A stretch of 23,199 bases of DNA from Methanobacteriota archaeon. GTDB taxonomy: Archaea; Thermoplasmatota; Thermoplasmata; UBA10834. A model generated the notes under the pieces. The model was not told the DNA's origin. It saw nothing but the letters and a program-made list of their open reading frames with translations, and did no database searches. Within the stretch, counting starts at the first letter, position 1, and each line of letters starts with the position of its first letter. Below, piece after piece: positions 5,301-22,450 of the stretch. The position numbers were made by a program, and so were the translations under genes. The stretch lies in contig CP070736.1 of NCBI GenBank assembly GCA_020347645.1, positions 920,451 through 943,649 on the forward strand. Direction: 5' to 3'.

Positions 5301-5367
5301 CCTGCATCCCGGCTGGTCCTCCGCCCACGACCAAGACCGCTCCGACAACTTCCTTCTTAGCCATCAT
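2365..5367 (-). CDS. hdrA: 1000-aa HdrA-like flavoprotein with two FAD/thioredoxin-reductase-like modules
   Basis: 1000-aa ORF. It has an N-terminal GGGPAGMQAALDLA FAD motif, an inserted ferredoxin (CTCCGICAEHCP, CIGCGICEKFC) and a central VFVCHCGINIG...CSQD...ASCTPRTHE...DQCSWVH cluster domain. A second Rossmann module follows (ALVIGGGLSGMTSALEIA ... CVGSRN ... CCST), then a C-terminal 2x[4Fe-4S] ferredoxin (CSGCGTCVEVCP, CKGCGCCGATCP). The ATG overlaps the TGA of mvhD (ATGA). Confidence 0.85.
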   Translation of the reverse strand: MMAKKEVVGAVLVVGGGPAGMQAALDLAESGYKVYVLETTPSIGGTMAQLDKTFPTNDCSMCILSPKLVATGRHENITLITNAELKKVEGEVGRFSVTVTKHQRFINEDKCTCCGICAEHCPIEGANSFERDLAPAKAIYVPFPQAVPLVYTIDKGLCIGCGICEKFCEANAIEYDMDSEIDETMEVGAIVLAPGYQVFDASKKSAYGHGVYANVVSNIEFERMLSASGPTEGHVIRPSDGDVPKSIAFIQCVGSRDAQTPNSYCSSYCCMAALKQAVIAKEHLPGLETTMFFMDTRAFGKEFEEYLQRAESEYGVRVFRNNRISGVQQNKETHDLSLSFIDAADISEETFDMVVLSAGAEPPEMSHKLAEILKIKTNKFGFCETDELSPVDSSLPGIFVCGAFSGPKDIPDSIAQASGAAGKVAALLSDQRGKLVTKKEYPEEMDLSNQEPRLGVFVCHCGINIGSVVNVPEVMEYASKLPGVVYAETNTYTCSQDTQKKIKEMIKEHNLNRVVVASCTPRTHEPLFQNTVREAGLNKYLFEMANIRDQCSWVHRLEPEAATEKAKDLVRMAVAKASRLEALQQPKIPVTPAALVIGGGLSGMTSALEIAKAGYEVHLIEKGKELGGHLRTIHSTLAGVDPRRTLAILRKEVLHNENITVHLGNTVEDVKGYIGNFESTLKDGEKIEHGAIVVATGAIEYEPTEYLYGKHPKVIRQTALGDMLSSGKFDAKSIVTIQCVGSRNDEHPNCSRICCSTAMTNALSIKKDYPDTEVYVLFRDIRTYGFSEENYNEAARLGVKFLRYDPSTPPKVQADGDDIEIHVDEQFIEQRIVLKPDYLVLNAAVHPNPDNKALAQLLKVPLNKEGFFLEAHMKLRPVDFPTDGIYLCGLAHSPRLIDESISQALAAAARVNTVLSKSSIEAEGVVSVVDEDKCSGCGTCVEVCPFSALRKNSDGVSEVIVAACKGCGCCGATCPEGAITMTHYTDQQLIAMARAALEEG
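3833..3910. repeat. Partner of the 78-nt hdrA-hdrA identity tract at 1..78
   Basis: See the feature at 1..78. The tract encodes the ...HNLNRVVVASCTPRTHE... segment of the Cys-cluster domain. Confidence 0.7.
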
Positions 5368-6730: not shown

Positions 6731-7311
6731 CCCCTCACCTCACTCTCTATGCCTATGAGCCTGTCATAGCCCGTGGAACGAACCAGCAGGTTAATCTCAC
6801 GTACGACTTTCGCGTATCCTCGAGTGCGCGACGGCATGTCTTCCAGGTCGAGCTCCCTCCTGACTCGCTCAATCTCAGAGTCAGGTTTGACGCTTTGGCC
6901 GTACTCGACGAGGTTTGTCGCAGCCAACTTGATGAAGGGTGGTATGACACCCTCCTTTATTGCCATGTGTCTGAGCGCTATCATCACTTCAGCAGGGTTT
7001 ATGTCGGCAGGGCAGTATTCATAACACCTGTAGCAGGTAGCACAGACCCACCTCATCTCAAGCGTGAACTTCTTAAGCCCAAACTGACAGAATTTGATTA
7101 TGCTTCTGGTCTTGTAGTCAATCTTGAGACTTATTGGACAGACGCCCGTGCAATTCCCGCATTGGAGACAAGTCATCACATCTTTGCCTCCATGCTTCAC
7201 GATTTCTTTGGCGAAATTCGGTTCAAGGTGCGACTCATCAATGATTTTGTCCTCGGCCAACTTCTCATGAAGGCCGCCTATGAATGTCTTCTCTACTTCT
7301 CCCATGATCAT
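6727..7311 (-). CDS. hdrC: Heterodisulfide reductase subunit C (2x[4Fe-4S] ferredoxin)
   Basis: 194-aa ORF with [12 protein letters not shown] and [12 protein letters not shown] motifs. The ATG overlaps the hdrA TGA (ATGA). Confidence 0.9.
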
Positions 7312-9473
7312 GCACCCTCCGCCCTATTCGCATCTTTCTTTGTCTTGCCGGCCGCCCTGCCAACACCTCCAAGGGCTGACGCGATTTCCGAAGTTATCTG
7401 CTCATCAGTGAACTGGTTCGCCGCTATGGCTTTTTGCGGACACGCCGGGACACAAGTCCCGCATCCATGACAGAGCGCTTCCACGATCTTCGCTTTTGAG
7501 CCCGTCTCGCTTTCGTGGACTTCCGGCGCGCCATAAGGACACATCTCAACGCACAGCCCGCATCCGACGCAAAGCTCTTCATCGACAATTGCTGTCAGAG
7601 GTTCAATTCTAACCTGTTTGCCAGCCATGATTGCGGCTGCGGATGCCGCAGCCGCTTTCGCCTGGGCCACCGAATCTGGGATGTCCTTGGGACCCTGTGC
7701 GCATCCCGCGAGGTATATGCCATCGATGGCGGTGTCGACAGGTCGGAGCTTTGGGTGCGCTTCCTGAAAGAATCCATCAGAGCTGAGAGAAAGCGGCAAG
7801 ACCTTGCCAATCCTCTTGCTTCCCTCGGACGGTTTGAGCCCCGTCGCTAGAACAATCAGGTCGAACTCCCTCTCCGTGATCTTGCTGAGCAGGGTCTCCT
7901 CCGCTCTTATCGTGATGGAGCCGGTTTCCGGATTCTCACTAAGCTTTGCTGGCCGACCTCTTATGAATTCAATTCCGTACTCTTCTCTAACGCGATGGTA
8001 CAGTTCCTCGAAGCCCTTCCCAAACGCTCTGATGTCATTGTAGTAAACAGCGATATCGGTGTCGGGTTGGTGCTCCTTGATTATCTGCGCATTCTTGATT
8101 GTATACATGCAGCAGACCCGCGAGCAGTAGGCGGATCCCAACTTCCTGTTCCTCGATCCTACGCATTGGATGAATGCAACCCTCTTTGGCGGCTTTCCAT
8201 CGGATGGTCTGATGAAATTCCCTCCAGTAGGACCCGAGGCGTTTATCAATCGTTCGAGTTCCAGGCCTGTTATGACGTTCCGGGACTCCCAATACCTGTA
8301 AACATCCCGCTTCTTCGGGACATATATGTCGAAGCCAGTGGCGCAAATGATCGTGCCGACTTTCAACTCAATTTCATCGTCGACAATTTCGTAATCTATT
8401 GCATCGTTGGAGCAAGCCTTGACACAAGCTCCGCATTTGCCGGTCTTGAAGTGAATGCAGTTCTCTCTATCGATCGTATACTTGAGCGGGACCGCCTGTG
8501 GAAAGGGAACGTAGATTGCCTTCCTCTTGCCAAAGCCTAGGTCGAACTTGTTGTCGACTTTGACCGGGCATGCGTCGGCACACACTCCACACCCGACGCA
8601 CTTGCTCTCATCGACATAGCGAGCCTTCTTCCTGACCTTCACATTATAATTGCCTATGAACCCGTGGATTTCTTCGACCTCGGAATATGAAAGGAGTGTG
8701 ATGTTTGGGTGCCTCGATAGCTCCACCATTTTGGGGGCCAATATACATATGGCACAGTCTCCCGTCGGAAAAGTCTTGTCCAATTGGGCCATGCGGCCGC
8801 CAATACTCGGCTCGGATTCGACGACGTAGACTTTAAATCCCATCTCCGCCAGGTCGAGTGCGGCTTGGATCCCCGCCACTCCTCCCCCAATAACCAGTGA
8901 CGATTGCTCTACGGGCACCTCTCTGGCCTCAAGCGGTTCTAGCCTTGCAGCCTTTGCTACCCCCATTCTCACTAGACCGATCGCCTTCTCAGTAGCCTTG
9001 TCTTTCTCTCGGGAGTGCACCCAAGAGCACTGCTCTCTGAGATTTACCATCTGCAACAGATACGGGTTGAGGCCAGCCTGCTTGACACAGTTCCTGAAAG
9101 TCGGTTCATGCATCCTTGGAGAGCACGCGGCAATGACAACTCTCTCGACCCCATTCTGTTTGATTGCAGAAATTATCTCATCCTGTCCAAGGTCTGAACA
9201 GGTGTACTTATTCTCTTTGGCAGTGACAACGCCCGGCAGCTTCTCTGCGGCCTCCCTGACTTTTGACGGATTAACGGTGCCTGCTATGTTGCTGCCGCAA
9301 TGACAGATGAAGACGCCTATACGCGGATTCGAAGAGATGCTATTCACCTCTCTCGCCGTTTCTCCGACTCCGTTTTCTCCGAGCGACTCATATGAATTCA
9401 CATCATCACTCCATGCTAAGACCGGCATTACTTCGTTTAGTCCGAGTAATCCCGCAATTACCGTTAAGCGCAA
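7308..9473 (-). CDS. hdrA: Heterodisulfide reductase subunit A, classical domain order (N-terminal Cys-cluster domain, FAD domain, inserted ferredoxin, C-terminal ferredoxin)
   Basis: The ORF-track start at 9473 is a TTG. In-frame alternatives are ATG at 9428 and a GTG at 9401 preceded by GGAGTGA, and the true N-terminus is probably one of these. Sequence shows [16 protein letters not shown]...CSDLGQ...AACSPRMHE...EQCSWVH, then [35 protein letters not shown]...CSRVCC, and C-terminal [12 protein letters not shown]...[12 protein letters not shown]. Confidence 0.9.
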
Positions 9474-9541
9474 AGACCGACTTAATTACTCGGCCCTGAT
9501 TTCATATCTGGAGATTAGTGTTTCGTGTAGCAGAAGGACAG

Positions 9542-9556
9542 TTAATATAGCTTTCG
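9542..9556 (-). promoter_or_regulatory. Candidate archaeal BRE/TATA element for the hdrACB-mvhD operon
   Basis: The minus strand reads CGAAAGC-TATATTAA (purine-rich BRE followed by an 8-bp TATA) inside the only AT-rich stretch of the window. It lies 70-115 nt upstream of the candidate hdrA start codons. Confidence 0.3.
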
Positions 9557-9826
9557 TTGTCAATATTTCTAAAAACGCATTGACGTCTGCGATAATTGTT
9601 AACAGGTCTCCTTAAGAAGGCCGGCAAGTGTACAGTAATGTATTCGCATATTCGAAGTCCAGTTTTCTGGATATGCGGTAGATTTGACAATCTTACACAC
9701 TTGTCGGCATTTTTAGGCAAATCAATAGCATCCCCACCCACTCCTCATTAGGAAATTCGCAACCATCACATCGCTTTACATTTGGGAAGATCGCTCACAT
9801 TCGCATTTCTTTCTGATGATAGGTCT

Positions 9827-10918
9827 TCAAGTCTTGTCGAGTCTTGTACGACGGTATCTGTGCGAGATATGGCAACTCCCTTCGCGCGAAACCATGCATG
9901 GTCCAATAGGATTCTCCGGAGTACATTTCCTGTCAAACAGTGGGCATTCCTCGCTTGTTATGATGCCCCGTAGAATCTCGCCACACCTGCAACCATCAGG
10001 CTCTATGCATTCCGCGTCTGCGGCGGCAGCAATTGTATCAGAGAAACGCTTGCTGGCATCGTGAATCTCAAGCTCGTTCTTCACCGACATCCCACTTTCG
10101 GGGATCACAGGGAATCCACGCCAGATAGCGTCTGTCGGCGTAAAAGCATCCCTAATAGCCTTCAGCGCCGTCGGGTTTCCGGCTGGTTTCACCACTCGCG
10201 AGTATTCGTTCTGCACCTCGCCCCTCCCCTCGGAGTGCTGTTTGGCCAAGAGGTAGACAGCCACCATGAGATCGAGGGGCTCGAAACCGGCCACAACCTG
10301 AGGTATTCCGTACTCTTCCGACAGAAATTCGTAGGGCGCGGTGCCGATAATTGCGCTCACGTGGCCAGGTTGAATCATGCCGTGGAGCTTTATCTCCCCC
10401 ATCGAAGATATCGCTCTCAGAGCCGGGGGAACGATTCTATGGAAACTCAGAACAGAGAAGTTATCCGGCGGACTCGATAGAAGGGCCGTAGCCGTTGTGG
10501 GCGCAGTTGTCTCAAAGCCGATTCCTACGAAGACCACCTCACCATGCGATTGTCTGGCAATATCAACCGCGTCGTCCACGCCGAAAACGATTCTGACGTC
10601 TCCTCCCTCGGCTTTGATGTCCCCGAGCGATTGCCTCTTGCCAGGAACTCTCATCAGGTCCCCGAATGCTGCTATAGTTATTCCAGCCCTTGCGAGTGCC
10701 ATCGTCGTTTCAATCTCCTGCGGTGGCGTTATGCACACCGGGCATCCTGGTCCTTGACGAATATCGATTCCGACTCTTTGAAATTCGCTGTCAAGACCGA
10801 ACCTGACGAGGGTGTCTTGGTGGGTGCCGCAAACGTGCATGAGGGTGATGTCGAGCCTCATCTCTTTCAGCTCTTTCAGTATCTTTTGGGACATCTCCCT
10901 GTCTCTCAGCCTAAACAT
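9827..10918 (-). CDS. hypD: [NiFe]-hydrogenase maturation factor HypD
   Basis: 363-aa ORF with MHVCGTHQD, GPGCPVCITP, FETTAP and a C-terminal Cys cluster (CRCG...ECPLF...C). Starts at ATG; overlaps hypA by 8 nt. Confidence 0.9.
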   Translation of the reverse strand: MFRLRDREMSQKILKELKEMRLDITLMHVCGTHQDTLVRFGLDSEFQRVGIDIRQGPGCPVCITPPQEIETTMALARAGITIAAFGDLMRVPGKRQSLGDIKAEGGDVRIVFGVDDAVDIARQSHGEVVFVGIGFETTAPTTATALLSSPPDNFSVLSFHRIVPPALRAISSMGEIKLHGMIQPGHVSAIIGTAPYEFLSEEYGIPQVVAGFEPLDLMVAVYLLAKQHSEGRGEVQNEYSRVVKPAGNPTALKAIRDAFTPTDAIWRGFPVIPESGMSVKNELEIHDASKRFSDTIAAAADAECIEPDGCRCGEILRGIITSEECPLFDRKCTPENPIGPCMVSREGSCHISHRYRRTRLDKT

Positions 10919-11285
10919 CCGGCACCACCATAGCGATGTTCCTTATGACGCAGTCACGGCCGCCTGTGACCTTTGCGAGATCCCCGCATCTTGGGCATTC
11001 GAACGCAGAAGCCAGAGCATGGGGCCTGTCGTTCGATGGCGACGTCTTTCCTCTGAATCCGCAGCTGCATTCAATCTCGCCATCCACGGTTTGCAGGTCC
11101 AAGATCGCCCCTTCGAGCAGGGTATTCTTAGACAACACTTCGAAGGCGAATCTAAGCTGATAGTGCCCGAGCATGGTGAACTCTCCCAGCTCGACTGTGA
11201 CCCTCTCTATCCTGGACGCGTTCCTGCTTTTCGCCTCATCGATTACGCTGGTGACTATTTCGCTCATAACGGAAAACTCATGCAT
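10911..11285 (-). CDS. hypA: Hydrogenase nickel-insertion protein HypA
   Basis: 124-aa ORF. Begins MHEFSVMSEIV (conserved MHE). Has two zinc-site motifs, CSCG and CPRCG. Confidence 0.85.
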   Translation of the reverse strand: MHEFSVMSEIVTSVIDEAKSRNASRIERVTVELGEFTMLGHYQLRFAFEVLSKNTLLEGAILDLQTVDGEIECSCGFRGKTSPSNDRPHALASAFECPRCGDLAKVTGGRDCVIRNIAMVVPDV

Positions 11286-11551: not shown

Positions 11552-13759
11552 TTAGCCGAGCAGGCTGCCAGCTATCGCGTTTTGACCTGTGGATATGCCA
11601 CCGTCTCCGTTTGGAACTCGCTCGTGGGTCACAAAGAAGAGACCATTCCTTGAAATCGTTCGCTCAACCCAATTCGAAATTGGATTGCTGTATGAGACTC
11701 CTCCAGTCAAGCCCACATTCGAGAACCCCTTCTTCTCCGCAATCTCGCAGGCTTTTTCAGCAAGCGCTGAGACAAGCGAGCAAACGAAAGACGCCGCCAC
11801 ATCAGCCTTTTGAGTGTTTGTGTCCATGCGTGTTTCTAGTATTCTCGCGAACATCGGCACTGTCTCCGCGTACTCAATCCCATTCCGCACTCCGAACTTC
11901 ACCTCGAAGTCGTTGCTGACGCTACCTTTCTCCAGCCATCTCTCGAGCTTGATTGCCGGCTCCCCCTCGTAAGTCCGTTTGCAGGAGAAGCCGAGAATGC
12001 AGGATAAAGCGTCGAGTACGCGACCCATGCTGGACGCCTTGACGCTGTTACCCATCATCTTGGAGTAGATGTCCACCTCCTCAGAACGAACGAGCGTCGG
12101 CTCCAACCCTATCATGAGTTGGAGAGCAGTGACAACTCTTCTGGGGTCTAATACGGCTTTATCTCCTCCCAGCAGAGGTAAGCCCTGCAACGTGCATAGC
12201 CTCTTGTATTTCCGGAAATCGGCGAGCAATGTCTCACCGCCCCATGATGTGCCGTCATCACCATAGCCAGTCCCGTCCCAGGCCAGGGCGACGATGGGCT
12301 CGAAGACCCTTCGATCTATCATGAGTGAAGCAGCGTGAGCGTGGTAGTGTTGCACCTCCACCATCTGACAGCCGTGTTCCTCAGCCAGTTGTCTAGCCAT
12401 TATTCTCGTAGAATATCTGGGATGCTTATCAAGGGAAATCGCATCAACATGCTCGGTTCCAAGCAATCCCGAGAGGTGACGTATTGCATTCCCTAGGTAT
12501 TGAAGCGTAGGGTGTTGTTGCGATTCTCCAATGTATTGGGTAAGGAATATCTCCCTGTTTCGGGTGATTGAGCCCGTGACATCCCATTGAGCTCCCACTC
12601 CTATGACAGTCTTGTCGTGATTCGCCTCAAGAGGGAGCGGCACAAATCCTCGGGATTTCCTAATGAAGCTGAGGTGATCGCCCCGCGGTTTCACAACGCT
12701 GTCGTCGCATCTGTGAATTATCCTGCGGTCGTGTAGCAGGTAGCAGTCTAATCCGAGTTCGAATGCCTTCGAGTTTTCCACCACCATCGGCTCTCCGGGC
12801 GGGTTCGCAGATGTCATTATCACCGCGTCCGCTTCCAGATGTGCGAATAGCAGCATGTGCGCAGCGGAGTAGGGCAACATGATACCCACATTATCCAAAC
12901 CCGGTGCAACCCCTTCCAGTGCCGACATTACCTCTTCCTTCTTCTTCAGGAGCACGATCGGTCTCTGGGGTGATCTAAGCACCCTTTCCTCGGCTTCGCT
13001 GACGTAGGCGTACCGCTTCGCGGCCTCAATGTCCCTTGTCATTATCGCATACGGCTTGTCTCCACGACGGTAGATCTTCCTCAGTCTCGGCGAACTTGCG
13101 AGTGCACAGACTATGTGCATCCCACCCCATCCCTTCAGAATGCCTACCCGCCCGTCATCGATATTTCTGGCGAATTCAAAGAAAGGTTCTCCTGCGACGA
13201 CCTCCCCGATGTGATCACGCAGCTCGTATGTCGGACCACATTCAGGGCAAGAGATTACCTGCGCGTGAAACCGCCTGTTCTCAGGATATTCATATTCGTC
13301 TAGGCAGGACTCGCACATTCTAAAATCCGACATACTGGTCCTGTCACGGTCGAAAGGCACACCCGTGATGATCGTGAACCGTGGTCCGCACTCAGTGCAA
13401 TTGGTGAATGGGTATCGATGTCTCTTGTCAGTGCATCTTTCGAAGTCGTCAACGCAGTTACCGCAAATCGCGGTGTCGGTGGGGATGAGGGATTCCTTTC
13501 TTCCCTCTCTGCTCCCCACTATCGAAAAGCCTTGTTGACCGCAATCGTACTCCTCAATCTCCACCCGGTCGATTCTCGCGAGTGACGGCAGCGCTTTCCT
13601 CAACCTCTTGAGGAACTCGTCGACGTCGCGATCCACGCAAATCTCCGCGTTCGAACCGTTGTTCAGAACATAGCCGTTGAGTCCCATCGCTCTGGCCACT
13701 CTGTATACAGTTGGTCTGAACCCAACACCTTGGACAACGCCGTAAACAGTAACTCTCAT
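11552..13759 (-). CDS. hypF: Carbamoyltransferase HypF
   Basis: 735-aa ORF. Has an acylphosphatase-like N-terminus (VYGVVQGVGFRPTVYRVA), two CxxC...CxxC zinc-finger pairs, and YrdC-like and Kae1-like domains. Strong SD (GGATAGGAG) upstream of the ATG. Confidence 0.9.
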   Translation of the reverse strand: MRVTVYGVVQGVGFRPTVYRVARAMGLNGYVLNNGSNAEICVDRDVDEFLKRLRKALPSLARIDRVEIEEYDCGQQGFSIVGSREGRKESLIPTDTAICGNCVDDFERCTDKRHRYPFTNCTECGPRFTIITGVPFDRDRTSMSDFRMCESCLDEYEYPENRRFHAQVISCPECGPTYELRDHIGEVVAGEPFFEFARNIDDGRVGILKGWGGMHIVCALASSPRLRKIYRRGDKPYAIMTRDIEAAKRYAYVSEAEERVLRSPQRPIVLLKKKEEVMSALEGVAPGLDNVGIMLPYSAAHMLLFAHLEADAVIMTSANPPGEPMVVENSKAFELGLDCYLLHDRRIIHRCDDSVVKPRGDHLSFIRKSRGFVPLPLEANHDKTVIGVGAQWDVTGSITRNREIFLTQYIGESQQHPTLQYLGNAIRHLSGLLGTEHVDAISLDKHPRYSTRIMARQLAEEHGCQMVEVQHYHAHAASLMIDRRVFEPIVALAWDGTGYGDDGTSWGGETLLADFRKYKRLCTLQGLPLLGGDKAVLDPRRVVTALQLMIGLEPTLVRSEEVDIYSKMMGNSVKASSMGRVLDALSCILGFSCKRTYEGEPAIKLERWLEKGSVSNDFEVKFGVRNGIEYAETVPMFARILETRMDTNTQKADVAASFVCSLVSALAEKACEIAEKKGFSNVGLTGGVSYSNPISNWVERTISRNGLFFVTHERVPNGDGGISTGQNAIAGSLLG

Positions 13760-14420: not shown

Positions 14421-14516
14421 GTTGTTGAGAAGCAGCCTTCTCGGAATAATCTTTTCGCCCCAAATGTGTGCCGCCGTTATCGGCAAGTGTTGAATTCTGC
14501 TACCTACTCTCCATCA

Positions 14517-14765
14517 ATGCCTATGAAGGAGACGTTCATATCGCATTCGACCTCAAAGCCAATGCGATGGATCAACAGGGTTGCCAAGAGTTCGACCAAG
14601 AAGGACAGAATTGAGGGGCCAGATCTGATTGGCGAAGTCGTTGCATTCCTCTTCATGTTCGCTGTACTATGGCTCATCGTGGCACATAAGACAAAGGAAA
14701 CAGGATTCCACATTGACTATTTCGGCGTGGTGGAGATACCCGGCGACCTTACCTGGCAGGGATAG
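14517..14765 (+). CDS. Hypothetical small membrane protein (one predicted TM helix)
   Basis: In-frame ATG inside track ORF 14415..14765. Encodes MPMKETF...VVAFLFMFAVLWLIVAHK... with a hydrophobic helix. No obvious SD, so it may be leaderless or spurious. Confidence 0.2.
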   Translation: MPMKETFISHSTSKPMRWINRVAKSSTKKDRIEGPDLIGEVVAFLFMFAVLWLIVAHKTKETGFHIDYFGVVEIPGDLTWQG

Positions 14766-14768
14766 ACG

Positions 14769-14777
14769 CTATATAAC
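14769..14777 (+). promoter_or_regulatory. Candidate TATA box for the Kelch-protein gene
   Basis: CTATATAAC sits about 85 nt upstream of the ATG at 14859, which is preceded by a GGTGAG SD. Confidence 0.3.
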
Positions 14778-14858
14778 TCGGTTTACGAATACTTCCGACA
14801 TGCTCGGAGCCGTTGGGGACTGATGCTCTATCGCGGCCGGGTGTGACAAGGTGAGAAG

Positions 14859-16508
14859 ATGACAAGTAGGAAAGTTGGCGAAACTGCGGTCCTTGCGGGA
14901 GTACTTGCGTTCCTGCTGGCATTCGCATCATTGAGCTTCATTGCGACCCCTGTCAGCGCAGCTCTGACAGGGGAATGGGTTGAAGAGACGTCCATGGGTG
15001 GGCCACGGGCGCAGGCCGTTATACTCTATGATGCGGAAGGAATCGCCTATGTGATAGGAGGAGTGAACAGCACATTACCCTACAGTGCAACGAACGAGAC
15101 AAATTCCTACGACTTGGATACAGGGTCGTGGGATTCCTTGGCTCCATTGCCATTTCCAACAAGGGGAGCAGCTGGCGCTGTGGGTCCCGACGGAAAGCTG
15201 TACATGTTCGGCGGAGAATACCCGGAAGACGCGGTCCAGATATATGACCCCGATTCCAATTCATGGCACCTTGGAACCAGCATGCCGACAGGCGTCTGGC
15301 AGGGCAGGGCAGGCATGGGTTACGATGGTATGATATACGTTATGGGTGGTGTCAATGGAACCTCCGGCATCACGGATTCGGTGCAGATCTACGATCCTAT
15401 GCTGGATTCATGGTCCCTGGGAGCCCCGATGCCCTACGCTCGAAACTCGGGGGCTCTCGTGAGCGTCTACGAGGGAAGCGGCTTCTATTACTTGGGAGGC
15501 AGCACCGTCTCATGGACTGACAGCAGCGCCACGGTCTACGTCTACTCAGTGGATGGAGACTTTTGGTACGGACTTGGGGATGAGATGCCAGTAACCGTGG
15601 CCTCGCAATCGTGTGCTATTGCCGTTGACGGGAACATCTTCGTGATGGGCGGCGGGGCCGATGGATACAACGTCGGCCCGGGTTATGACACAACCTATTG
15701 GTATGACACGTCTGATGGCGATTGGCACGACGGCCCCGCCCTCCCGGTCGGTGTGAGGCACGCGGGCGCTGTCGCGACTCCCGAGGGAATGCTCTACTTC
15801 TTCGGAGGCAACAACGATACGGATGTTATGAGCACCGTTCTCTCTCTTGAGGTCGCGCATTTGGAAGTTACCCTCTCGGGAACACCAGTGGCCCAAGGCG
15901 GTTTCTTGAATCTCGGGATCACGCTGGATTTAGCATTCGCACACCCGGACGGCTACTATGCAGACGCATATCTTATTTCGGACTCTGGAACTGTGCATTC
16001 AGTGTGGGAGGTCTGGGTCCCTGTCCTTGAACCCGCGGAGTTCGTGTTGGATATCCCGGCCGCAACGCCCGCAGGCGATTACACACTCGTTGTGGACGTG
16101 GGATTCTATCCATCGGACTTCCCAGAGAAGTCATTAGACGTAACCGTGACAGATGCATACACGTTCGAGGAGCAACTGGAGATGTTGAGGGCAAACTTGA
16201 CCGAACTCCTGGACGCTCAGGCGACGGACATCGCGGATCTTGAGGCGGCGCTCGACGCCCTGGAGGCTCAACTTTCCGACGCCGACGGCAACATCACCGA
16301 CTTGCAGACTCAGCTGGACGAGCTGCAGGATGTCCTGACCGAGATGCAGGAATCCATGAACGACGTACAGACATCGGTGGACAAGAAGACCGACAACTCT
16401 CTACAGTATGCCGTCATTGGCCTGCTCATCGTAGTCATCGTCCTCATGGTTCTCATGATGATCATGGGCCGCAGGCCTGGCGCGTCACCGCCTCCTCCTG
16501 ATGCGTGA
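14859..16508 (+). CDS. Secreted Kelch-repeat beta-propeller protein with coiled-coil stalk and C-terminal transmembrane anchor
   Basis: 549-aa ORF. Signal peptide MTSRKVGETAVLAGVLAFLLAFASLSFIATPVSA, then six repeats of the Kelch pattern (YDxxxxSW...MP...R...). Then an acidic Leu-heptad segment (LEMLRANLTELLDAQATDIADLEAALDALEAQL) and a terminal helix VIGLLIVVIVLMVLMMIMGRR with a Pro-rich tail. Confidence 0.8.
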   Translation: MTSRKVGETAVLAGVLAFLLAFASLSFIATPVSAALTGEWVEETSMGGPRAQAVILYDAEGIAYVIGGVNSTLPYSATNETNSYDLDTGSWDSLAPLPFPTRGAAGAVGPDGKLYMFGGEYPEDAVQIYDPDSNSWHLGTSMPTGVWQGRAGMGYDGMIYVMGGVNGTSGITDSVQIYDPMLDSWSLGAPMPYARNSGALVSVYEGSGFYYLGGSTVSWTDSSATVYVYSVDGDFWYGLGDEMPVTVASQSCAIAVDGNIFVMGGGADGYNVGPGYDTTYWYDTSDGDWHDGPALPVGVRHAGAVATPEGMLYFFGGNNDTDVMSTVLSLEVAHLEVTLSGTPVAQGGFLNLGITLDLAFAHPDGYYADAYLISDSGTVHSVWEVWVPVLEPAEFVLDIPAATPAGDYTLVVDVGFYPSDFPEKSLDVTVTDAYTFEEQLEMLRANLTELLDAQATDIADLEAALDALEAQLSDADGNITDLQTQLDELQDVLTEMQESMNDVQTSVDKKTDNSLQYAVIGLLIVVIVLMVLMMIMGRRPGASPPPPDA

Positions 16509-16590
16509 GGTGCGCGTAAATGTCGATGAATCGGGTGGAGAGACAGGCGTAATCCGCTGAACGCTCAAGAGGGATTGATTTCCCTCGCTA

Positions 16591-16620
16591 AACCCTTTTC
16601 CCATATTCTGTTTATGTTGC
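16591..16620 (+). terminator. Possible oligo-T termination signal after the Kelch gene
   Basis: T-runs (CCCTTTTCCC, CTGTTTATGTT) within 110 nt downstream of the stop. Archaeal termination uses oligo-T. The placement is weak. Confidence 0.2.
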
Positions 16621-16633
16621 ATTGTCTCACAGC

Positions 16634-16718
16634 TACAGAGGGATTCGAACCTCTGCCAAGCCAGTAGGTCCGAAGTCGGAGGAAATCAAGAGGAATTTCG
16701 TACCGGGGACAAACCCTT
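16634..16718 (-). repeat. tRNA-like repeat copy A (T-arm/acceptor-like core plus ~60-nt extension)
   Basis: The reverse complement contains GGTTCGAATCCCTCTG... About 95% identical to copy C over ~85 nt. Same orientation as copies B, C, E and D. Confidence 0.6.
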
Positions 16719-16878
16719 TTCAATCATTCCATGCCGAGAGAACTACCCTCTTTCAAGAAATGAATTCACTCGGCACTGAATTCGACTCGTTGGCTATGTT
16801 CTAAGAAGCGATTGGAGATTTCGGGAAGAGTGTTGAGAAGATTGATATCCACCAGCAAGATTACCCTGTGAGTAATCC

Positions 16879-17520
16879 ATGCCGAACGATGAATTCTGGC
16901 CAGAGGAGGAAGTGAGGAAGTATACTACCGAGATGAAGGCCGTGACAATCACCGTCAACTTCATCGTCGAGGGTAAGCAGATGATACTATCCGTAGACAA
17001 CTTCGAGAAGCTGCTGCGCAAGGCATACAGAATCGCAATCATCGACTGCGAATGCAGGACCCGAGTGAAGGCGTGCAGCGCTCCAGTCGACGTCTGTATC
17101 TATATGAACGAGGGAGCGGACGACCAAGTCGGGTTAGGACGTGGGAAAGAGGTCTCGCTTGAGCAAGCCCTCGACGCCATAAGGAGAGCGCATGAGGCGG
17201 GGCTCGTCCATACAGCTTTTAGCGACATCGACGGGAAGGAACCGCAGTACATCTGCAGCTGCTGCTCGTGCTGCTGCCATACATTCCCCGCGCTGCAGAG
17301 ATACGGGTTCAGCGAGTATTTGGTCTCGTCCGAGATGATTGCTGCCCAAGACGACGATAAGTGTGACGACTGCGGACTCTGCGCAGACACATGCCACTTC
17401 AGAGCGAGGAATATTGTGAACGGACGCCTGAAGTATGACAAGAAGAAGTGCTTCGGTTGCGGTATTTGCATTCCCTCTTGCCCTAACGGCGCGATATCGA
17501 TGAAGAATAGGCACAATTGA
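16879..17520 (+). CDS. Cysteine-rich iron-sulfur protein with a C-terminal 2x[4Fe-4S] ferredoxin domain, function unknown
   Basis: 213-aa ORF. Has CECRTRVKAC...C, an unusual ICSCCSCCCH block, and then CDDCGLCADTC and CFGCGICIPSCP ferredoxin motifs. Confidence 0.75.
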   Translation: MPNDEFWPEEEVRKYTTEMKAVTITVNFIVEGKQMILSVDNFEKLLRKAYRIAIIDCECRTRVKACSAPVDVCIYMNEGADDQVGLGRGKEVSLEQALDAIRRAHEAGLVHTAFSDIDGKEPQYICSCCSCCCHTFPALQRYGFSEYLVSSEMIAAQDDDKCDDCGLCADTCHFRARNIVNGRLKYDKKKCFGCGICIPSCPNGAISMKNRHN

Positions 17521-17535
17521 GGATTCAATAAAGTT

Positions 17536-17622
17536 GGGGGCAGAGGGATTTGGACCTCTGCCGAGCCAGCATGTCCGAAGCCCAAGGGAATCAAGAGGAA
17601 TCTTGTACCAGGGGCGAACTCC
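17536..17622 (-). repeat. tRNA-like repeat copy B (diverged)
   Basis: GGGGGCAGAGGGATTTGGACCTCTGCCGAGCCAG... is homologous to copies A and C with many substitutions (T-loop reads TCCAAAT). It is read through by the artefactual N-terminus of track ORF 17534..18997. Confidence 0.5.
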
Positions 17623-17830
17623 TTTCTCCCTTGTCGTTCACCCAGCCAACGAGGACGATTCTGCAAATGTGTGCTGGTCACGGGTCAAACGCGATAGTTA
17701 TCGCTGCGCTGACAGGACGCGCGGATTCCGGGATTCGAACCAAGGAGTAGCCCGACATCCTTCCTTAATCGCAATTGAGTATGTGAAGATAGACAAGGTT
17801 GATATAGCGCAACCTGACTACGATTGGCGG

Positions 17831-18997
17831 GTGGTAGTAGTGAGGGGTGCAGCAATCAGTGTGGGAGTTGCGATTCTGCTGCTGTTCTCAGGCCTCAGTC
17901 TGATATCCCAAGATGTGGCAGCAAGTGGGTACGAAGATGGTGTCTCTCCGGATCGTACATTCTATCTGGATCGTGGTGGGGAGAAAGAGAACGGCAAGTC
18001 TTATGAGAGCACTCTCGTCCCTCCGTTCCCTGGTGAATGGTGGTTGGAACTACTGGTGCTCGATGGCGGTTCCGTCGAAGTATCGGTCTATTCCACATAC
18101 GTTCGAGGTCCTGCAATAGCCAAAATGAGCTTGGGCTCGATCGGGATGGTATCGGCACGTCTTCCGGTGACGGCCGGCTACTCTTACGACTTAACCTTCA
18201 AGATTGAAGGCGGTCCAGGCTACGCTGTTATGAAGGAACACTTCCTGTCAACCCTTCCGCCGCCCGCGGAGCTTCCTCCCTTCGGAACTGTACCACACGC
18301 CCCGATACATATCTGGTCCTATACCGACTATCTGGATCCATTGAACGACATATCTGGTTCGGGAACTGAAGACGATCCGTTTGTCATCGAGGGCTGGGAG
18401 ATAAGCGGAGGGGTTGAGGACGGCATCTGGGTGTGCGAGTCCAACTTCCATCTGGTCATCCGTGATTGCTTTGTCCATTCCATCGGCTACCCCAGCGCAG
18501 GCATATATCTCTTCGTGACCTCGAATGTCGTGATTGAGAATTGCTATGTTGAGAACTGTGTGGGTAGTGAGATTGCCATAGGCTCGTGCTCGTCAATCCT
18601 TGTCAGGAACTGCGTGATCTGGAACGATGTCTACACATATCATTCAACGGATTCCACGTTCGAAGACAACGTGATTGGGAAGTCCAGACTCTTGTTACAG
18701 CAGTGCAGCAGCATTACTGTGCGTGGAAACACGCTACGCGATGGCATGATTGCCTCGTACTTCATCGCCTGTAATGATTGCCTCGTGTACAACAACAACT
18801 TCATGGAAAACGGGCAGAATGTGTACATCTGGGAATCCGTGGCTGTCGTGTGGGATTGCGGCCCCGTCTTGGGAGGGAACTACTGGTCCGATTACACAGG
18901 AATCGACTCTGACGGTGACGGATTGGGTGACACTCCATATGAGATCGCTCCAGACTGCATCGACCGGTATCCCTTGATACTTCCCTATAGCGGATGA
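17831..18997 (+). CDS. Secreted right-handed parallel beta-helix repeat protein (NosD / pectin-lyase-like)
   Basis: Repeated beta-helix rungs (VIRDCFVHS, VIENCYVENC, VRNCVIWND, VRGNTLRDG, VYNNNFMENG). C-terminal GNYWSDYTGIDSDGDGLGDTPYEI...DRYPL motif typical of the NosD/beta-helix family. The start is uncertain: in-frame GTGs lie at 17783, 17831 and 17840, and the last gives a canonical signal peptide MRGAAISVGVAILLLFSGLSLISQDVAA. The first ~100 codons of the track ORF (from the TTG at 17534) translate repeat B and are unlikely to be coding. Confidence 0.75.
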   Translation: MVVVRGAAISVGVAILLLFSGLSLISQDVAASGYEDGVSPDRTFYLDRGGEKENGKSYESTLVPPFPGEWWLELLVLDGGSVEVSVYSTYVRGPAIAKMSLGSIGMVSARLPVTAGYSYDLTFKIEGGPGYAVMKEHFLSTLPPPAELPPFGTVPHAPIHIWSYTDYLDPLNDISGSGTEDDPFVIEGWEISGGVEDGIWVCESNFHLVIRDCFVHSIGYPSAGIYLFVTSNVVIENCYVENCVGSEIAIGSCSSILVRNCVIWNDVYTYHSTDSTFEDNVIGKSRLLLQQCSSITVRGNTLRDGMIASYFIACNDCLVYNNNFMENGQNVYIWESVAVVWDCGPVLGGNYWSDYTGIDSDGDGLGDTPYEIAPDCIDRYPLILPYSG

Positions 18998-19098
18998 ACT
19001 CCGAAGTACTGCGCGCCTTGGAGAACGCCATGCCAGGCACCCCCGGTGCAAAAACCCCCTTGATTTCTCGGGACGACGATTATACCGACTATGCGTGA
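18994..19098 (+). CDS. Conserved 34-aa small ORF (MNSEVLRALENAMPGTPGAKTPLISRDDDYTDYA), paralogue of 22038..22142
   Basis: The ATG overlaps the TGA of the beta-helix gene (ATGA). A 34-codon paralogue with the same length and phase sits before repeat D. The two differ at 28 nt, 13 of them in third codon positions, including 8 purely synonymous codon changes. The ORF ends 4 nt before repeat C. Confidence 0.4.
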   Translation: MNSEVLRALENAMPGTPGAKTPLISRDDDYTDYA

Positions 19099-19102
19099 GA
19101 GT

Positions 19103-19187
19103 GGGGGCAGAGGGATTCGAACCCCTGCCAAGCCAGTAGGTCCGAAGTCGGAGGAAATCAAGTGGAATTTCGTACCGGGACAAACCC
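19103..19187 (-). repeat. tRNA-like repeat copy C
   Basis: The reverse complement ends ...GGCAGGGGTTCGAATCCCTCTGCCCCCA (T-stem/TTCGAAT loop/acceptor-like). ~95% identical to copy A over 85 nt. Its left flank (the small ORF) is homologous to the flank of copy D. Confidence 0.6.
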
Positions 19188-19229
19188 TTTCATCCTGTCA
19201 TTTCTGAGGTGCGGGCGACTATCGGCATA

Positions 19230-19940
19230 TCAGGATAGTGGGTCATCGATTGGCCCATGGTCTATCCATGAGTAGAGTTGCCCATCATGGACTGCGATAC
19301 CGTACCCTTCCCGGGCCTCCTGGCCACCCGCAGTGCAATAGAGTTCGAGTTCATACACAATGTCCTCCAGGAACCCAACCGACGAAACTGAACCATCTCT
19401 GAACACGATATGGACGAACGAGAAAGTGTCCCCAGCGTTGAATACTTCTGGATCAGTTGCATCAGAGACGAAATACGCAGTCAGAGAGCGAACCTCGACT
19501 TCGCCATCGAAGTAGATGGAGTATCCCAGCAGGGGTAGGCTCTCAGCTTCATCGAGGGTTGCAGGGACGGAGAAAGCAGAGATTTCGATGAATTCCTCGC
19601 ACGAGAACGGGCAGTATTTTCCCGTCGAGCCATCATCACGGTACTCAGTCATGTATATCGAAATATTGGCGTATGCCCAGAATGGGACTTCGTTGAGAGA
19701 CTCATTGAAGTCCCTGTTCCAGGTTACCCCCCACGACTGAAGCGTCAAGGGCGTGTCCTGCATTGGATATGGGTCGTCTGGCTCGTCAAAAACCCCCTCA
19801 GAGGCAAGGCCGTATAGAGCGAAAGCCACGAGTACCAAGACCAGCACAACAGACAGAATCCTGATTTTCAGAACATCAGAAGGTCTTCTCGGAGGTTCAT
19901 TTCTCCCCGGCTGTCTCGGTTCTGCTGCCTCATCACCCAT
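19230..19940 (-). CDS. Hypothetical single-pass membrane protein (Pro/Arg-rich cytoplasmic N-terminus, extracytoplasmic domain)
   Basis: 236-aa ORF: MGDEAAEPRQPGRNEPPRRPSDVLKIR, then a TM helix ILSVVLVLVLVAFALYGLA. GAGGA SD about 10 nt upstream of the ATG. No recognisable family. Confidence 0.6.
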   Translation of the reverse strand: MGDEAAEPRQPGRNEPPRRPSDVLKIRILSVVLVLVLVAFALYGLASEGVFDEPDDPYPMQDTPLTLQSWGVTWNRDFNESLNEVPFWAYANISIYMTEYRDDGSTGKYCPFSCEEFIEISAFSVPATLDEAESLPLLGYSIYFDGEVEVRSLTAYFVSDATDPEVFNAGDTFSFVHIVFRDGSVSSVGFLEDIVYELELYCTAGGQEAREGYGIAVHDGQLYSWIDHGPIDDPLS

Positions 19941-20004
19941 TAGACCATTCCTCAGGTCGTGCTGAACATCTTCTCACGTACAAATATCCTCGGACCACCT
20001 ATCA

Positions 20005-20055
20005 GGAGCAGAGGGATTTGAGTCTCTGCTGAGCCAGTATGTCCAGAATCCGAGT
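20005..20055 (-). repeat. tRNA-like repeat copy E (short, degenerate)
   Basis: AGCAGAGGGATTTGAGTCTCTGCTGAGCCAGTATGTCCAGAATCCGAG aligns with the first ~50 nt of copies A, B and C. Same orientation. Confidence 0.45.
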
Positions 20056-20098
20056 ACTTGTTATCTCGATGTTGAAAAGCGGAGAACGGGGAGGGGAG

Positions 20099-21508
20099 CT
20101 ACTTCCCCTTCTCCCGCCGCCCATCGACAGAGTTTCTGCCTTCCTCGAGCTTGGATAACTCGGACTTCAAGTCCTTGTTCTCCTCCATGATTCCCGTGAG
20201 CACGCCCATGATGTCCTTGAAGCCAAGGTCATTGGGTCGAGCGAGTCTGTTCAGCACGCTCACGGCCGAGCTTTCACTCGCCACATCCAGGCTTTCGATG
20301 AGCTGGCCGAGGTCAAACCCAGATCTCGCAGAGTCTCCTCCAGCAAACACCTTCAGATCGGCAGATGTCAGAGCCTTTGCTGTCTCGAGCCCGATCTGTC
20401 TCTGCATCTCAACGAGACGCTCGGCGACCAGCGCTCTGATGGCTTCTGGTCCGAACCGGTTCAGGGCGTCCTGCAGCTTCATCTTTGCCTCAGCATCTGC
20501 GAGCCCCTTCTCTCTGATGGGAGCGGCTTCTCCCTTCGCCTTCTCGGACAGGTAGATCTTGTCTCCTTCTCCGTCGAGCCTCTTCCTCTCTTTGTTGATC
20601 TCCTCGACTTCCCTGTCCTGGTTGGCTACGACGAGGGCCTTCTGCTTGAGGATCTCGGCCATCTTGACCTCATCGACCCTCCTGACCTCGAACTGCTCTG
20701 CGAGGGCGACCTTCTCGAACTCCGCGACGGCCCGATCCTTCTCCTGCCGTCGTTTCGCGACCTCCTCATCCCTCCGAATCTCCCTCTTCGTGGCCTCCTC
20801 GTCCGTCTCCGCCTCTTTGAGCCTCGCGATCTTCCTCTGCTCGGCGTTCTTCTGCCTCGCCTCGCTGTTGATCTGCTCCTCGATGATAGACGATACGTCT
20901 CTGATCACGTGCGGAGGCTCCGCTTCGCCATACTCTGCTTTCGTCGGGTCCTGGAAGTAGACGAGCTCGATGTCCTTAAGGTCGATGCCCCAGTGACCTA
21001 TCGCCTCTCTCAGGGGAGGGTTGATTGTATCGATTATGTCCTGCCTATTGTTGATTATCTCCCTTATGGTCTTCTTCGTGCATGCATCCCTTGTTGTGGC
21101 CGTGACGATCATGGCCACTTGCCTCTCCAGTTCGGTTACATCGCCGCCGAACCTCTGTGCCGCCTTGACGGGAGTAGTGACTGCGACATAGGCGATGATG
21201 TTGCACAGAAATCGAGCCCTGTCTATGTCGAAAGCCATGAAGTTCGACACGTCAACCGTGATCATCCTCAGAGGAACCCTGTGTACGGTCATGCCCAGTC
21301 CGAAGAGGAAGAACCATGATGGAATCTTGAAGTACGCGGCCCTCCCCTCTCTGTTGTAATCCTTGTGCGGGGACAGAACGCGCATCTTGCCTTTCTGGAT
21401 GACTACGTCGACATAGTCTGCAGGGACTATGGTGTACATCGCTGCAAGGATCGCAAAGAGGATCAGCAGTACGATGATTATGATGAAGGTCAGAAGCCAA
21501 GTCTCCAT
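20099..21508 (-). CDS. SPFH/band-7 (flotillin-like) membrane protein with long Glu/Ala/Lys/Arg-rich coiled-coil region
   Basis: N-terminal TM helix LLTFIIIIVLLILFAILAAMY, an SPFH core, then an extended EA/KR-rich helical region (KNAEQRKIARLKEAETDEEATKREIRRDEEVAKRRQEKDRAVAEFEK...). I chose the ATG at 21508 (METW...), which is preceded by GGGGGGA and overlaps the upstream gene's TGA. The track's ATG at 21526 is the alternative. Confidence 0.85.
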   Translation of the reverse strand: METWLLTFIIIIVLLILFAILAAMYTIVPADYVDVVIQKGKMRVLSPHKDYNREGRAAYFKIPSWFFLFGLGMTVHRVPLRMITVDVSNFMAFDIDRARFLCNIIAYVAVTTPVKAAQRFGGDVTELERQVAMIVTATTRDACTKKTIREIINNRQDIIDTINPPLREAIGHWGIDLKDIELVYFQDPTKAEYGEAEPPHVIRDVSSIIEEQINSEARQKNAEQRKIARLKEAETDEEATKREIRRDEEVAKRRQEKDRAVAEFEKVALAEQFEVRRVDEVKMAEILKQKALVVANQDREVEEINKERKRLDGEGDKIYLSEKAKGEAAPIREKGLADAEAKMKLQDALNRFGPEAIRALVAERLVEMQRQIGLETAKALTSADLKVFAGGDSARSGFDLGQLIESLDVASESSAVSVLNRLARPNDLGFKDIMGVLTGIMEENKDLKSELSKLEEGRNSVDGRREKGK

Positions 21509-21768
21509 CACATTTCCCCCCCACATCGCTCCTTGATTGCGACCAGAACCATTGTACCATCGTACACGCGCCCCGAAATCATCCTGTGCGGAAGCAGAGT
21601 TATGACCCCGTCCTTCTCAACGTAGATGTCCTTGCCATCGTTCAGTTCTCTGTACGCACTCTCAAGGTCGGCTATCGTGTGGAAGATGATCTTGTCTCCC
21701 TTGACCTTGTCTCCGAGTATCAGTTCCTCGACCGTGTAGATTCTCCTGCCTTCCGGAGTTTGTCTCAT
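21508..21768 (-). CDS. Small soluble protein translationally coupled to the flotillin gene (possible NfeD-like partner)
   Basis: 86-aa ORF with GGGGGAAGTGA SD. Its TGA overlaps the flotillin ATG. Operon pairing of SPFH proteins with NfeD-type OB-fold partners is established in bacteria and archaea. The beta-rich composition fits, but I did not verify a family match. Confidence 0.5.
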   Translation of the reverse strand: MRQTPEGRRIYTVEELILGDKVKGDKIIFHTIADLESAYRELNDGKDIYVEKDGVITLLPHRMISGRVYDGTMVLVAIKERCGGEM

Positions 21769-22037
21769 GCTCTCACTTCCCCCAGTACCCCTGGATCCAT
21801 ATGCGCGTGCGTCGACTCCGTGCGCATACCATTTCTCAGGATTGCATCAAACCTTTTTAACTCTGGCGATGGAATTCCGCTCGTGAATTTCGAGCCTTGG
21901 CCCCCTGATGTGGTTCACAGGGCTGCTTGCCTGAAGGCGACGCGGTTGCCGCTGAGCGAGGCGGCCGCATCGACGGCCCTTGGACACAGAAGGATCAAGG
22001 CCACGCAAGCGTGCTACTGCAAATAAGCATAGACACG

Positions 22038-22142
22038 GTGAATTCTGAGGTTCTGCAAACCTTGAACGACGCTGTGCTTGGCTACCCTGGTACGAAAAAC
22101 TCCGTGATTTCTCGGACGGACGATTACACTGGCTATGCGTAG
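22038..22142 (+). CDS. Conserved 34-codon small ORF, paralogue of 18994..19098 (GTG start; VNSEVLQTLNDAVLGYPGTKNSVISRTDDYTGYA)
   Basis: Homology to the copy-C small ORF begins exactly at the start codon (ATG there, GTG here) and runs to the stop, 3 nt before repeat D. The longer track ORF 21927..22142 adds an unconserved N-terminus. Confidence 0.35.
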   Translation: MNSEVLQTLNDAVLGYPGTKNSVISRTDDYTGYA

Positions 22143-22145
22143 GTG

Positions 22146-22316
22146 TGGGGGCAGAGGGATTTGAACCCCCATCGACGGGTTTCCACCACGTGGAGAGCGA
22201 CTCCACGCGTTCAGACATGGGTCATCGCTCCAGTTACTCATCACTGGTCAGCAAACCCAACGGAAATCATTCCCATAACTGGAGCCCGTTAGGATCCCAG
22301 GTTACCCCATACCCCC
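22146..22316 (-). tRNA. tRNA-like gene, possibly intron-containing or disrupted (repeat copy D)
   Basis: Minus-strand sequence starts GGGGGTA-TG-GGGT-AACCTGGG-ATCC. That gives a 7-bp acceptor stem that pairs with the 3' TGCCCCC-A, plus U8, A14, a GG in the D-loop and a 4-bp D-stem. It ends GGGGG-TTCAAAT-CCCTC-TGCCCCC-A, a near-perfect T-arm. A 5-bp AACGG/CCGTT stem encloses 22 nt, which would be an anticodon loop plus intron. About 87 nt lie between that stem and the T-arm, including a perfect hairpin CGTGGAG-TCGCT-CTCCACG. Confidence 0.3.
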
Positions 22317-22342: not shown

Positions 22343-22450
22343 CTACTTCTTCCTGAGCTTCTGAGCTCTCTTGCGTCTCCTCATCTTCTTCTTGCGCCAC
22401 TTCCAGCGCTGTTTTCCACGTTTCTTCCACGCTCGAGAACTCCTTTTCAT
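22343..22450 (-). CDS. rpl41e: Ribosomal protein L41e
   Basis: 36-codon minus-strand ORF: MKRSSRAWKKRGKQRWKWRKKKMRRRKRAQKLRKK. It is extremely basic, with the RWKW...RKKKMRR pattern of archaeal/eukaryotic L41e. GGAG SD about 10 nt upstream and a TATA box about 48 nt upstream. Too short for the ORF track. Confidence 0.7.
   Translation of the reverse strand: MKRSSRAWKKRGKQRWKWRKKKMRRRKRAQKLRKK

Follow-up and report, generated by a model that had tools for sequence, protein, structure and literature searches.

Within a 23,199-nt stretch of a Thermoplasmata archaeon genome (GenBank assembly GCA_020347645.1, contig CP070736.1, positions 920,451 to 943,649; hereafter the window), two frames of 34 codons, copies C and D, each end a few nucleotides before a repeat related to tRNA, and the question raised by this locus is what these paired frames are. 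They are identified, by homology, as the conserved C-terminal tail of a tyrosine integrase, i.e. the stretch that follows the catalytic tyrosine. Both copies are very probably integrase pseudogene stubs without a product of their own, and we are highly confident that, in the window, the 3' end of the single tRNA-Trp gene of this archaeon is an integration hotspot.

We first consider the frames themselves. Both are present as described in the first-pass annotation of this DNA, made from the sequence alone, with the same length and with their stops beside repeats C and D (Table 1). A repeat search of the window returned 18995-19125 and 22039-22169 as a 131-nt pair with 76% identity, a similarity far above chance (blastn of C against D, E=1.7e-21) that stops at both ends of this stretch in a global alignment of wider regions. 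The 28 differences reported between them were reproduced, with a distribution of 9/6/13 over codon positions 1/2/3 when the start codon is excluded (10/6/13, i.e. 29, when it is included), and the eight codon pairs listed as synonymous proved correct codon by codon. The 9/6/13 split is not significantly non-uniform (chi-square ~2.6, 2 degrees of freedom, p ~0.27), so that the C/D pair by itself is no proof of coding. Three nucleotides separate the stop codon of either copy from the following TGGGGGCAG, the tRNA 3' end on the opposite strand. The 5' boundary of copy C is the stop codon of a NosD-like gene, with an ATGA overlap. The earlier statement that similarity begins at the start codon holds for C against D only, since the integrase homology of copy D extends further upstream, in another frame.

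The integrase homology became apparent in a scan of one genome per species for the pattern TAYGCNTRR followed by 3 nt and the tRNA-Trp 3' end (related contigs are designated by L numbers and related proteins by P numbers). Nine Thermoplasmata contigs matched this tail-stop-tRNA-Trp pattern, with a recognisable tail upstream in seven. In L008 and L007 the tail frame remains open upstream into the C-terminal part of a tyrosine recombinase, including the catalytic tyrosine region, and reads ...VRFELRALRRTYGQ...ALGH.S.KTTQ.YYCQ.S.D.VN.E.L...; these fragments align to positions 106-166 of the 172 of the Pfam Phage_integrase model with E ~9e-5, which is sub-threshold because they are truncated, and the L008 protein is named 'site-specific integrase' at NCBI. 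Altogether, the tail frame is contiguous with an integrase open reading frame (ORF) in five loci (L007, L008, L010, L011 and L012). With the 277-aa protein P0002 as query, HMMER found 518 relatives at E<=1e-3 among 1.84 billion representatives. Two of these, P0010 (65% identical) and P0011, are full length with 334 aa and aligned to their last residue, with a tail that ends ...PLISR..TGYA*, and P0010, P0011 and P0014 match Pfam PF00589, scoring ~50 bits where the gathering score is 27.1. The 12 relatives that were inspected, full length or nearly so and down to ~31% identity, all end in ..(T/S)GY(A/V/T/S/L) after ..PLI(S/E)...

Conversely, a tblastn search of the window with integrase P0002 found copy D (E=6e-11) and copy C (E=1e-9), and P0010 found copy C (E=6e-6); an alignment with the integrases places copy C at their C-terminus, roughly at residues 301-334 of P0010. 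Near copy D, P0002 gave a second high-scoring segment pair in the other frame, 21967-22023 (ASTALGHRRIKATQACYCK), immediately followed by a stop codon. The layout of copy D is thus as follows: frame +1 holds the region of the Gly-His and Tyr motifs, a stop (22024-22026) and a frameshift come next, and the tail is read in frame +3. At the nucleotide level, the window matches the integrase remnants of L008, L011 and L041 from 21963-21965 onward. Both copies display significant homology to the C-terminal region of the PF00589 family, and neither is a functional gene of that family: copy C begins past the catalytic Tyr, with no integrase homology upstream of it, and copy D has no more than the ..GH..K.TQ..Y.. 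stretch, out of frame with the tail and with a stop after it. The search for homologues of the peptide that the first-pass annotation had proposed returned integrase C-termini, with a variable 5' boundary and, in L006, a 4-nt deletion that breaks the tail frame. Its suggestion of a gene borne by a mobile element, or of a fragment of a split gene, came closest as a mobile-element gene fragment; a free-standing peptide gene, or a gene split in the manner of SSV integrases, it is not.

What lies beside copy D, previously described as a tRNA-like repeat, is indeed related to tRNA, and is in fact a real tRNA-Trp(CCA) gene on the minus strand, c[22145,22316]. It was found by ARAGORN with introns allowed; the default ARAGORN run and the Rfam gathering scan of the window returned nothing and missed it because of its 98-nt intron. 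This intron carries box C/D-like motifs (GTGATGA...CTGA) and a weak match to C/D-box sR3 at 22220-22274 (E=0.03), below the gathering score. Repeats A, B, C and E, in turn, have only the last 22-25 nt of the tRNA (acceptor 3' strand and T arm), followed by a common 65-nt non-tRNA sequence, X. We denote by R the combination of core and X. The core at copy C is in identical register to 22146-22169 of the real tRNA, and all five core copies in the window are co-oriented and lie beside tRNA-Trp. The same holds elsewhere: in the 41 loci that include the tRNA, every R copy is oriented like the tRNA and lies on its 3' side. In R, the two arms of an 8-bp inverted repeat enclose an 8-nt spacer to form the core, GGCAGAGG-GATTYGAA-CCTCTGCC, a layout that would correspond to the usual core site of a tyrosine recombinase with the T loop as spacer. 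We also tried repeats A-C as tRNA genes, as permuted or split tRNAs and as TnpB omega-RNA-like scaffolds, and rejected these candidates, as the repeats have no acceptor 5' strand, inconsistent frames and ordinary neighbours (by Pfam, Kelch, Fer4, NosD-like and SPFH/flotillin genes).

An intact element explains how tail, core and X belong together. The 11.2-kb contig L012, which encodes P0010, starts with core and X (attachment site attR), continues with cargo genes and ends with an intact integrase gene, followed by TGA, 3 nt and tRNA-Trp (attL). Its integrase-core-tRNA-Trp segment spans 10001-11127, and the integrated element is ~11 kb long. L012 is thereby bounded by direct repeats of the tRNA 3' end, with the intact tRNA at one end and the integrase inside: it is a classical integrated element. 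X is its far end, and at the tRNA end the integrase tail adjoins the core. The X arm of repeat C is the same sequence as the left end of L012 and was found at 29 metagenome loci. Given this architecture, a 'tail-core-X' junction, such as copy C or 5822-5989 in L001, would be the border between two elements inserted successively at one tRNA. The unit of small ORF plus tRNA-like element that the first-pass annotation had recognised would then dissolve into parts of two elements, the ORF belonging to one, the core being the crossover site and X belonging to the neighbour.

Next to the tRNA gene, the integrase was observed at graded stages of erosion (Table 1), and in every tRNA-adjacent case the tail-homologous stretch ends at the att core. 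Short tail ends (..TATGCNTAG and 3 nt) are also found to the left of displaced R copies in L001b, L013, L014, L018, L021, L028 and L029. Including copy C and L001a, tail remnants are present at the R junctions of window repeat C and of L001a/b, L013, L014, L018, L021, L028 and L029, implying that the corresponding units formerly had their own integrase. At window repeats A, B and E no tail remnant is significant, nor does the degenerate remnant reported before copy A reach significance as an integrase tail (z=0.4).

Table 1. Positions of the features discussed, in the window and in related contigs.
Feature	Contig	Positions	Strand	Remarks
Copy C	window	18994-19098	+	34-codon frame encoding MNSEVLRALENAMPGTPGAKTPLISRDDDYTDYA*; by homology, last 34 codons of a decayed tyrosine integrase gene
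Copy D, integrase remnant	window	21965-22142	+	~59 codons, frameshifted
Copy D, small ORF	window	22038-22142	+	34-codon frame encoding VNSEVLQTLNDAVLGYPGTKNSVISRTDDYTGYA*
tRNA-Trp(CCA)	window	22145-22316	-	98-nt intron at position 36/37; attL/attB of the elements
Repeat A (core + X)	window	16632-16718	-	outermost att scar of the island; acceptor part of the core degenerate
Repeat B (core + X)	window	17537-17623	-	att scar, 17 nt past the stop of the Fer4 gene; common to L011, L041 and L035
Repeat C (core + X)	window	19104-19190	-	from repeat and core comparison
Displaced att core of repeat C	window	19102-19125	-	plus-strand sequence TGGGGGCAGAGGGATTCGAACCCC; copies the 3' end of tRNA-Trp (acceptor 3' strand and T arm)
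X arm of repeat C	window	19126-19190	-	element-side (P-arm) sequence of attR; belongs to the tRNA-proximal element
Repeat E	window	20005-20054	-	45 nt past the flotillin-like gene; incomplete, degenerate att scar with the core and the beginning of X
Inverted repeat, left arm	window	19042-19067		26 nt inside the integrase tail codons (PG.K.PLIS)
Inverted repeat, right arm	window	19154-19179		within the X arm of repeat C
Second left-of-core class	window	16570-16635
Second left-of-core class	L008	5658-5725, 7082-7150
Second left-of-core class	L010	2560-2622
R central hairpin	window	16669-16682
R central hairpin	L007	about 2930-2945
R central hairpin	L010	about 170-185
Core + X (attR)	L012	31-120
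Cargo genes	L012	between attR and integrase		ten genes, including a D12-class DNA methyltransferase and DUF proteins
Intact integrase	L012	10001-11005		334 codons, tRNA-adjacent
tRNA-adjacent remnant	L004, L005			3-4 codons
tRNA-adjacent remnant	L009			about 8 codons
tRNA-adjacent remnant	L003			about 25 codons
tRNA-adjacent remnant	L002			about 28 codons
tRNA-adjacent remnant	L007			83 codons
tRNA-adjacent remnant	L011			112 codons
tRNA-adjacent remnant	L041			about 166 codons
tRNA-adjacent remnant	L008			169 codons
tRNA-adjacent remnant	L030			about 285 codons, frameshifted

We propose the following history. The element family encodes a tyrosine integrase of ~334 aa, whose gene converges on the tRNA and has its stop codon 2-3 nt from the tRNA 3' end. 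Its attP would read, in order, integrase tail codons, a core of 22-37 nt identical to the tRNA-Trp 3' end, and the X arm, and a core-by-core crossover would yield two junctions, tRNA-core-integrase (attL) and, at the far end, X-core-flank (attR). Copy D would be the attL of the most recent element, its integrase eroded to ~59 frameshifted codons. Copy C would be the junction between the X arm of that same element and an older integrase tail displaced from the tRNA, of which the last 34 codons are left. Both window copies are eroded from the 5' side and not cut by recombination, and their coding-type divergence would have arisen while both were the tails of functional integrases in two elements. 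This order of integration events is what we infer. Tandem integration and the loss of integrase genes after integration have been described for archaea (PMC8371274).

Several observations weigh against this history. The inner junctions at window repeats B and E, L010a-c and L008a/b have no tail remnant; either the integrase and its tail were cleanly deleted up to the core, or these units never had an integrase. The copy D tail is nearer to the L011 tail than copy C is (13 versus 20 differences), so that the simple version in which C is the older orthologue of the L011 remnant fails as stated. The ATGA overlap joins copy C to the NosD-like gene, through which the stub could conceivably be translated by coupling. 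Finally, we found no excised circular form or free attP; two pattern scans of the IMG/VR viral contigs, one with the X arm and one with the tail-core junction, came back empty, and a protein search of GenBank phage records returned only bacterial phage integrases with 25-26% identity.

Among the alternatives, the one that survives best, though we regard it as distinctly less probable than not, is that the fragment is kept for its DNA, either as the P' arm of the att site, to which integrase or accessory proteins would bind, or as the oligo-T terminator and 3' trailer of tRNA-Trp, or both; it is compatible with an origin as an integrase stub. The blocks ATGCCAGGCACCCCCGGTAC and TTGATTTCTCGG are conserved even at synonymous sites. 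Moreover, the tail and X form a 26-nt inverted repeat with 81% complementarity, with the arm boxes CCGGTAC and TTGATTTC on each side. When eight tails were compared with nine X arms, the best 26-nt match was in register for almost all pairs, with 18-22 identities against a shuffle maximum of 16-18, and the L012 tail pairs best with its own X (20/26). These arms are candidate arm-type protein-binding att sites, one of them overlapping the last codons of the integrase, and an arm-type site within the tail may add a constraint at the nucleotide level. The last 12-15 nt (GGCTATGCNTAG and 3 nt) also persist at the core where the rest is lost, in L004, L005, L009 and at several R junctions, and a run of 5-6 T is present on the tRNA strand ~55 nt past the tRNA end. 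This run, however, is interrupted in L002 and L010 (TTTCTT) and reduced to T4 in L012. Remnant length is free, from 3 to >100 codons, which argues that no fixed DNA module is kept, and PG, PLI and TGYA are conserved as amino acids in integrases that are only 31-40% identical, indicating a constraint at the protein level.

A second alternative, which we consider improbable, takes the locus as an integron-like array in which single-gene cassettes with R sites are inserted by one resident integrase at tRNA-Trp, the small ORF being part of the recombination site. There is, correspondingly, only a slim chance that the interval between HypB and tRNA-Trp is a working gene-capture platform, with the ~90-nt R sites acting like attC and any incoming or resident integrase of the family inserting, excising and shuffling single-gene units; the last 35 codons of the integrase could then double as an arm of the recombination site. 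The island is delimited on the outside by HypB (in the window, L020, L021, L022, L030 and L040) and on the inside by tRNA-Trp, and the content in between varies among genomes with 83-90% identical flanks. The units between R copies are compact and usually hold one intact gene (A-Fer4-B-NosD-C-236aa-E in the window), and in L010/L030 one integrase is accompanied by four R copies and four single genes; L010 lacks a close homologue of the window 236-aa protein, the resemblance being superficial. Like integrons, with their IntI integrases and attC arrays, including archaeal ones, the island has short co-oriented site-like repeats between mostly single genes beside a tyrosine recombinase gene; many of its inner junctions carry no integrase remnant, and the R core resembles a recombinase core site. 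Yet the integrase is no IntI (TIGR02249 has a cut-off of 265 bits, and the score is 34.5), the repeats consist of a copied tRNA 3' end joined to an element arm and are not attC, integrase tail remnants lie at many R junctions, gene orientation within the units is mixed, and an ordinary 11-kb element with the same ends exists in L012. No cassette was seen in two array contexts: the sole shared unit, Fer4 and R, is syntenic, being outermost in the window, L011, L041 and L035, with differing units inside it. Shared outer and differing inner units are the pattern expected of insertions at the tRNA that push older ones outward.

As an observation in its own right, the island (window 14500-22145; L010/L030, L022, L008/L029 and L041) contains up to four co-oriented ~90-nt att-like repeats per contig, spaced 0.9-1.7 kb apart, and the junctions without integrase remnant give the array its integron-like look.

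That either copy is a genuine small-protein gene, co-opted from the integrase tail or independent of it, with copy C translated by coupling to the NosD-like gene, is very unlikely. The frame is open in both window copies, with ATG or GTG starts at the same position, and the ratio of nonsynonymous to synonymous substitution rates (dN/dS) of the tails, whose computation over more copies had been proposed, is indeed below 1 (0.18-0.65 among divergent pairs, 0.40-0.55 for copy C and 0.18-0.40 for copy D). We attribute these values to once-functional integrases and not to a peptide gene; they are consistent with a protein tail under weak constraint that later underwent some neutral decay. Across homologues neither start nor length is fixed, and the frame is not always intact: the start is ATG, GTG or absent, similarity begins at differing codons in L002, L003, L006 and L009, the frame of L006 is broken by its 4-nt deletion, and in the five loci given above it forms no more than the end part of an integrase ORF. 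Nor does the 34-aa peptide have a Pfam match or, by exact-sequence look-up, any record as a called gene in the collection (the same look-up gave no record for the flotillin-like protein). The weakest alternative, a conserved structured RNA (a 3' trailer of tRNA-Trp, as the first-pass annotation had envisaged, or a small RNA) whose substitutions mimic coding, can practically be set aside even though the stretch lies directly downstream of the tRNA on the tRNA strand and is conserved across genomes, since RNAalifold on nine tail copies (tRNA strand) gave a consensus fold of only -7.0 kcal/mol with a covariation term of +0.19 and a compensatory change in 1 of 18 pairs, no Rfam family matches the tail even at E<=1, and the protein explanation accounts for the conservation.

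Integrase stubs thus being the preferred reading, we compared the family with known archaeal systems. It shares with the SSV-type 'suicidal' integrases (SSV1, pTN3, pT26-2) an archaeal host, a tRNA target and integrase fragments beside tRNA genes. In that type attP lies inside the integrase ORF and the gene is split into int(N) and int(C) on integration, whereas here the ORF ends before the core in 13 of 13 copies examined, with the stop 3 nt before it, and the gene is intact in the integrated L012. Minus-strand ORFs through the tRNA core were considered as SSV-type Int(C) and rejected, their translations being arginine-rich and antisense without any Pfam hit, and the real integrase being on the plus strand. 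The non-partitioning (pNOB8-type or lambda-P4-like) integrases agree in the tyrosine recombinase catalytic domain (PF00589 in the full-length relatives), in direct repeats of the tRNA 3' segment with the tRNA restored by the element copy, in an integrase that stays whole after integration, as in L012, and in tandem insertions followed by integrase decay, as in archaea (PMC8371274). The present family differs from them in that the integrase stop is only 2-3 nt from the tRNA end and that the last ~35 codons overlap one arm of the 26-nt inverted repeat flanking the core. By sequence, the closest solved structure is XerA (Thermoplasma acidophilum 5hxy, E=5e-6; Pyrococcus abyssi 4a8e), with which the catalytic fold is shared, and recomb_XerA_Arch is the best NCBIfam match by name, with 49.9 bits against a family cut-off of 220. 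Unlike XerA, these genes lie in mobile elements beside a tRNA gene and encode a long ...PLI..TGYA tail; the family members are integrases, not chromosome dimer resolvases. A limited literature search found no description of a Thermoplasmata tRNA-Trp element of this family.

A number of further observations concern the att sites and their surroundings. To the left of some R cores stands a second sequence class, ..CCAT(T/C)(T/C)CCCTCGACC.. ~45 nt .. CCACG(A/C)ATT-CAGAGGG, in place of the tRNA acceptor part and the integrase tail; the 'TTGATTTCCCTCG' that the first-pass annotation had noted before copy A resembles it. This class could represent a different attP arm or a different target. The R central hairpin reads CCGA..TCGG in window repeats A and C and CGCG..CGCG in L007 and L010a, a compensatory-looking change, and it is disrupted in other R copies. 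L026 encodes a full-length distant integrase of the family (9516-10544, minus strand; 36% identical to P0010) ~1.5 kb from an R-like repeat at 12023-12106 (plus strand), in opposite relative orientation, and this integrase may belong to a different sub-family or use a different target site. Just upstream of tRNA-Trp, a highly basic 35-aa ORF (MKRSSRAWKKRGKQRWKWRKKKMRRRKRAQKLRKK; 22343-22450, minus strand), conserved in related loci and without Pfam hit, presumably resembles ribosomal protein L41e. The first 9500 nt of the window display a long paralogy, with direct repeats at spacings of ~3822-3828 nt and 3551-3563 nt and 60-80% identity that extend over the window start and over the ORFs of 1000 aa (2365-5367, minus strand) and 721 aa (7308-9473, minus strand), an arrangement suggestive of three Cys-motif-rich, paralogous sets of genes in tandem. 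In P0005 (219 aa, JGI metagenome), the gene caller prolonged an integrase remnant, itself frameshifted, across the tRNA-Trp antisense strand (..GAEGFEPPSTGFHHVESDST..), a case in which such stubs give rise to spurious database proteins.

Overall, neither 34-codon frame should be annotated as a gene, while the intron-bearing tRNA-Trp gene should be, together with ~14.5-22.1 kb as an integration island. Integrase stubs at att junctions are ordinary integration scars, a known kind of feature, and no concept is changed by them; only the island around them, in which att-like repeats separate single-gene units, is mildly unusual. For studies of archaeal mobile elements, the locus is of use in documenting a Thermoplasmata tRNA-Trp element family with a clear attP layout (integrase tail, core, X arm), of which nearly all chromosomal copies have lost the integrase from its 5' end inward.

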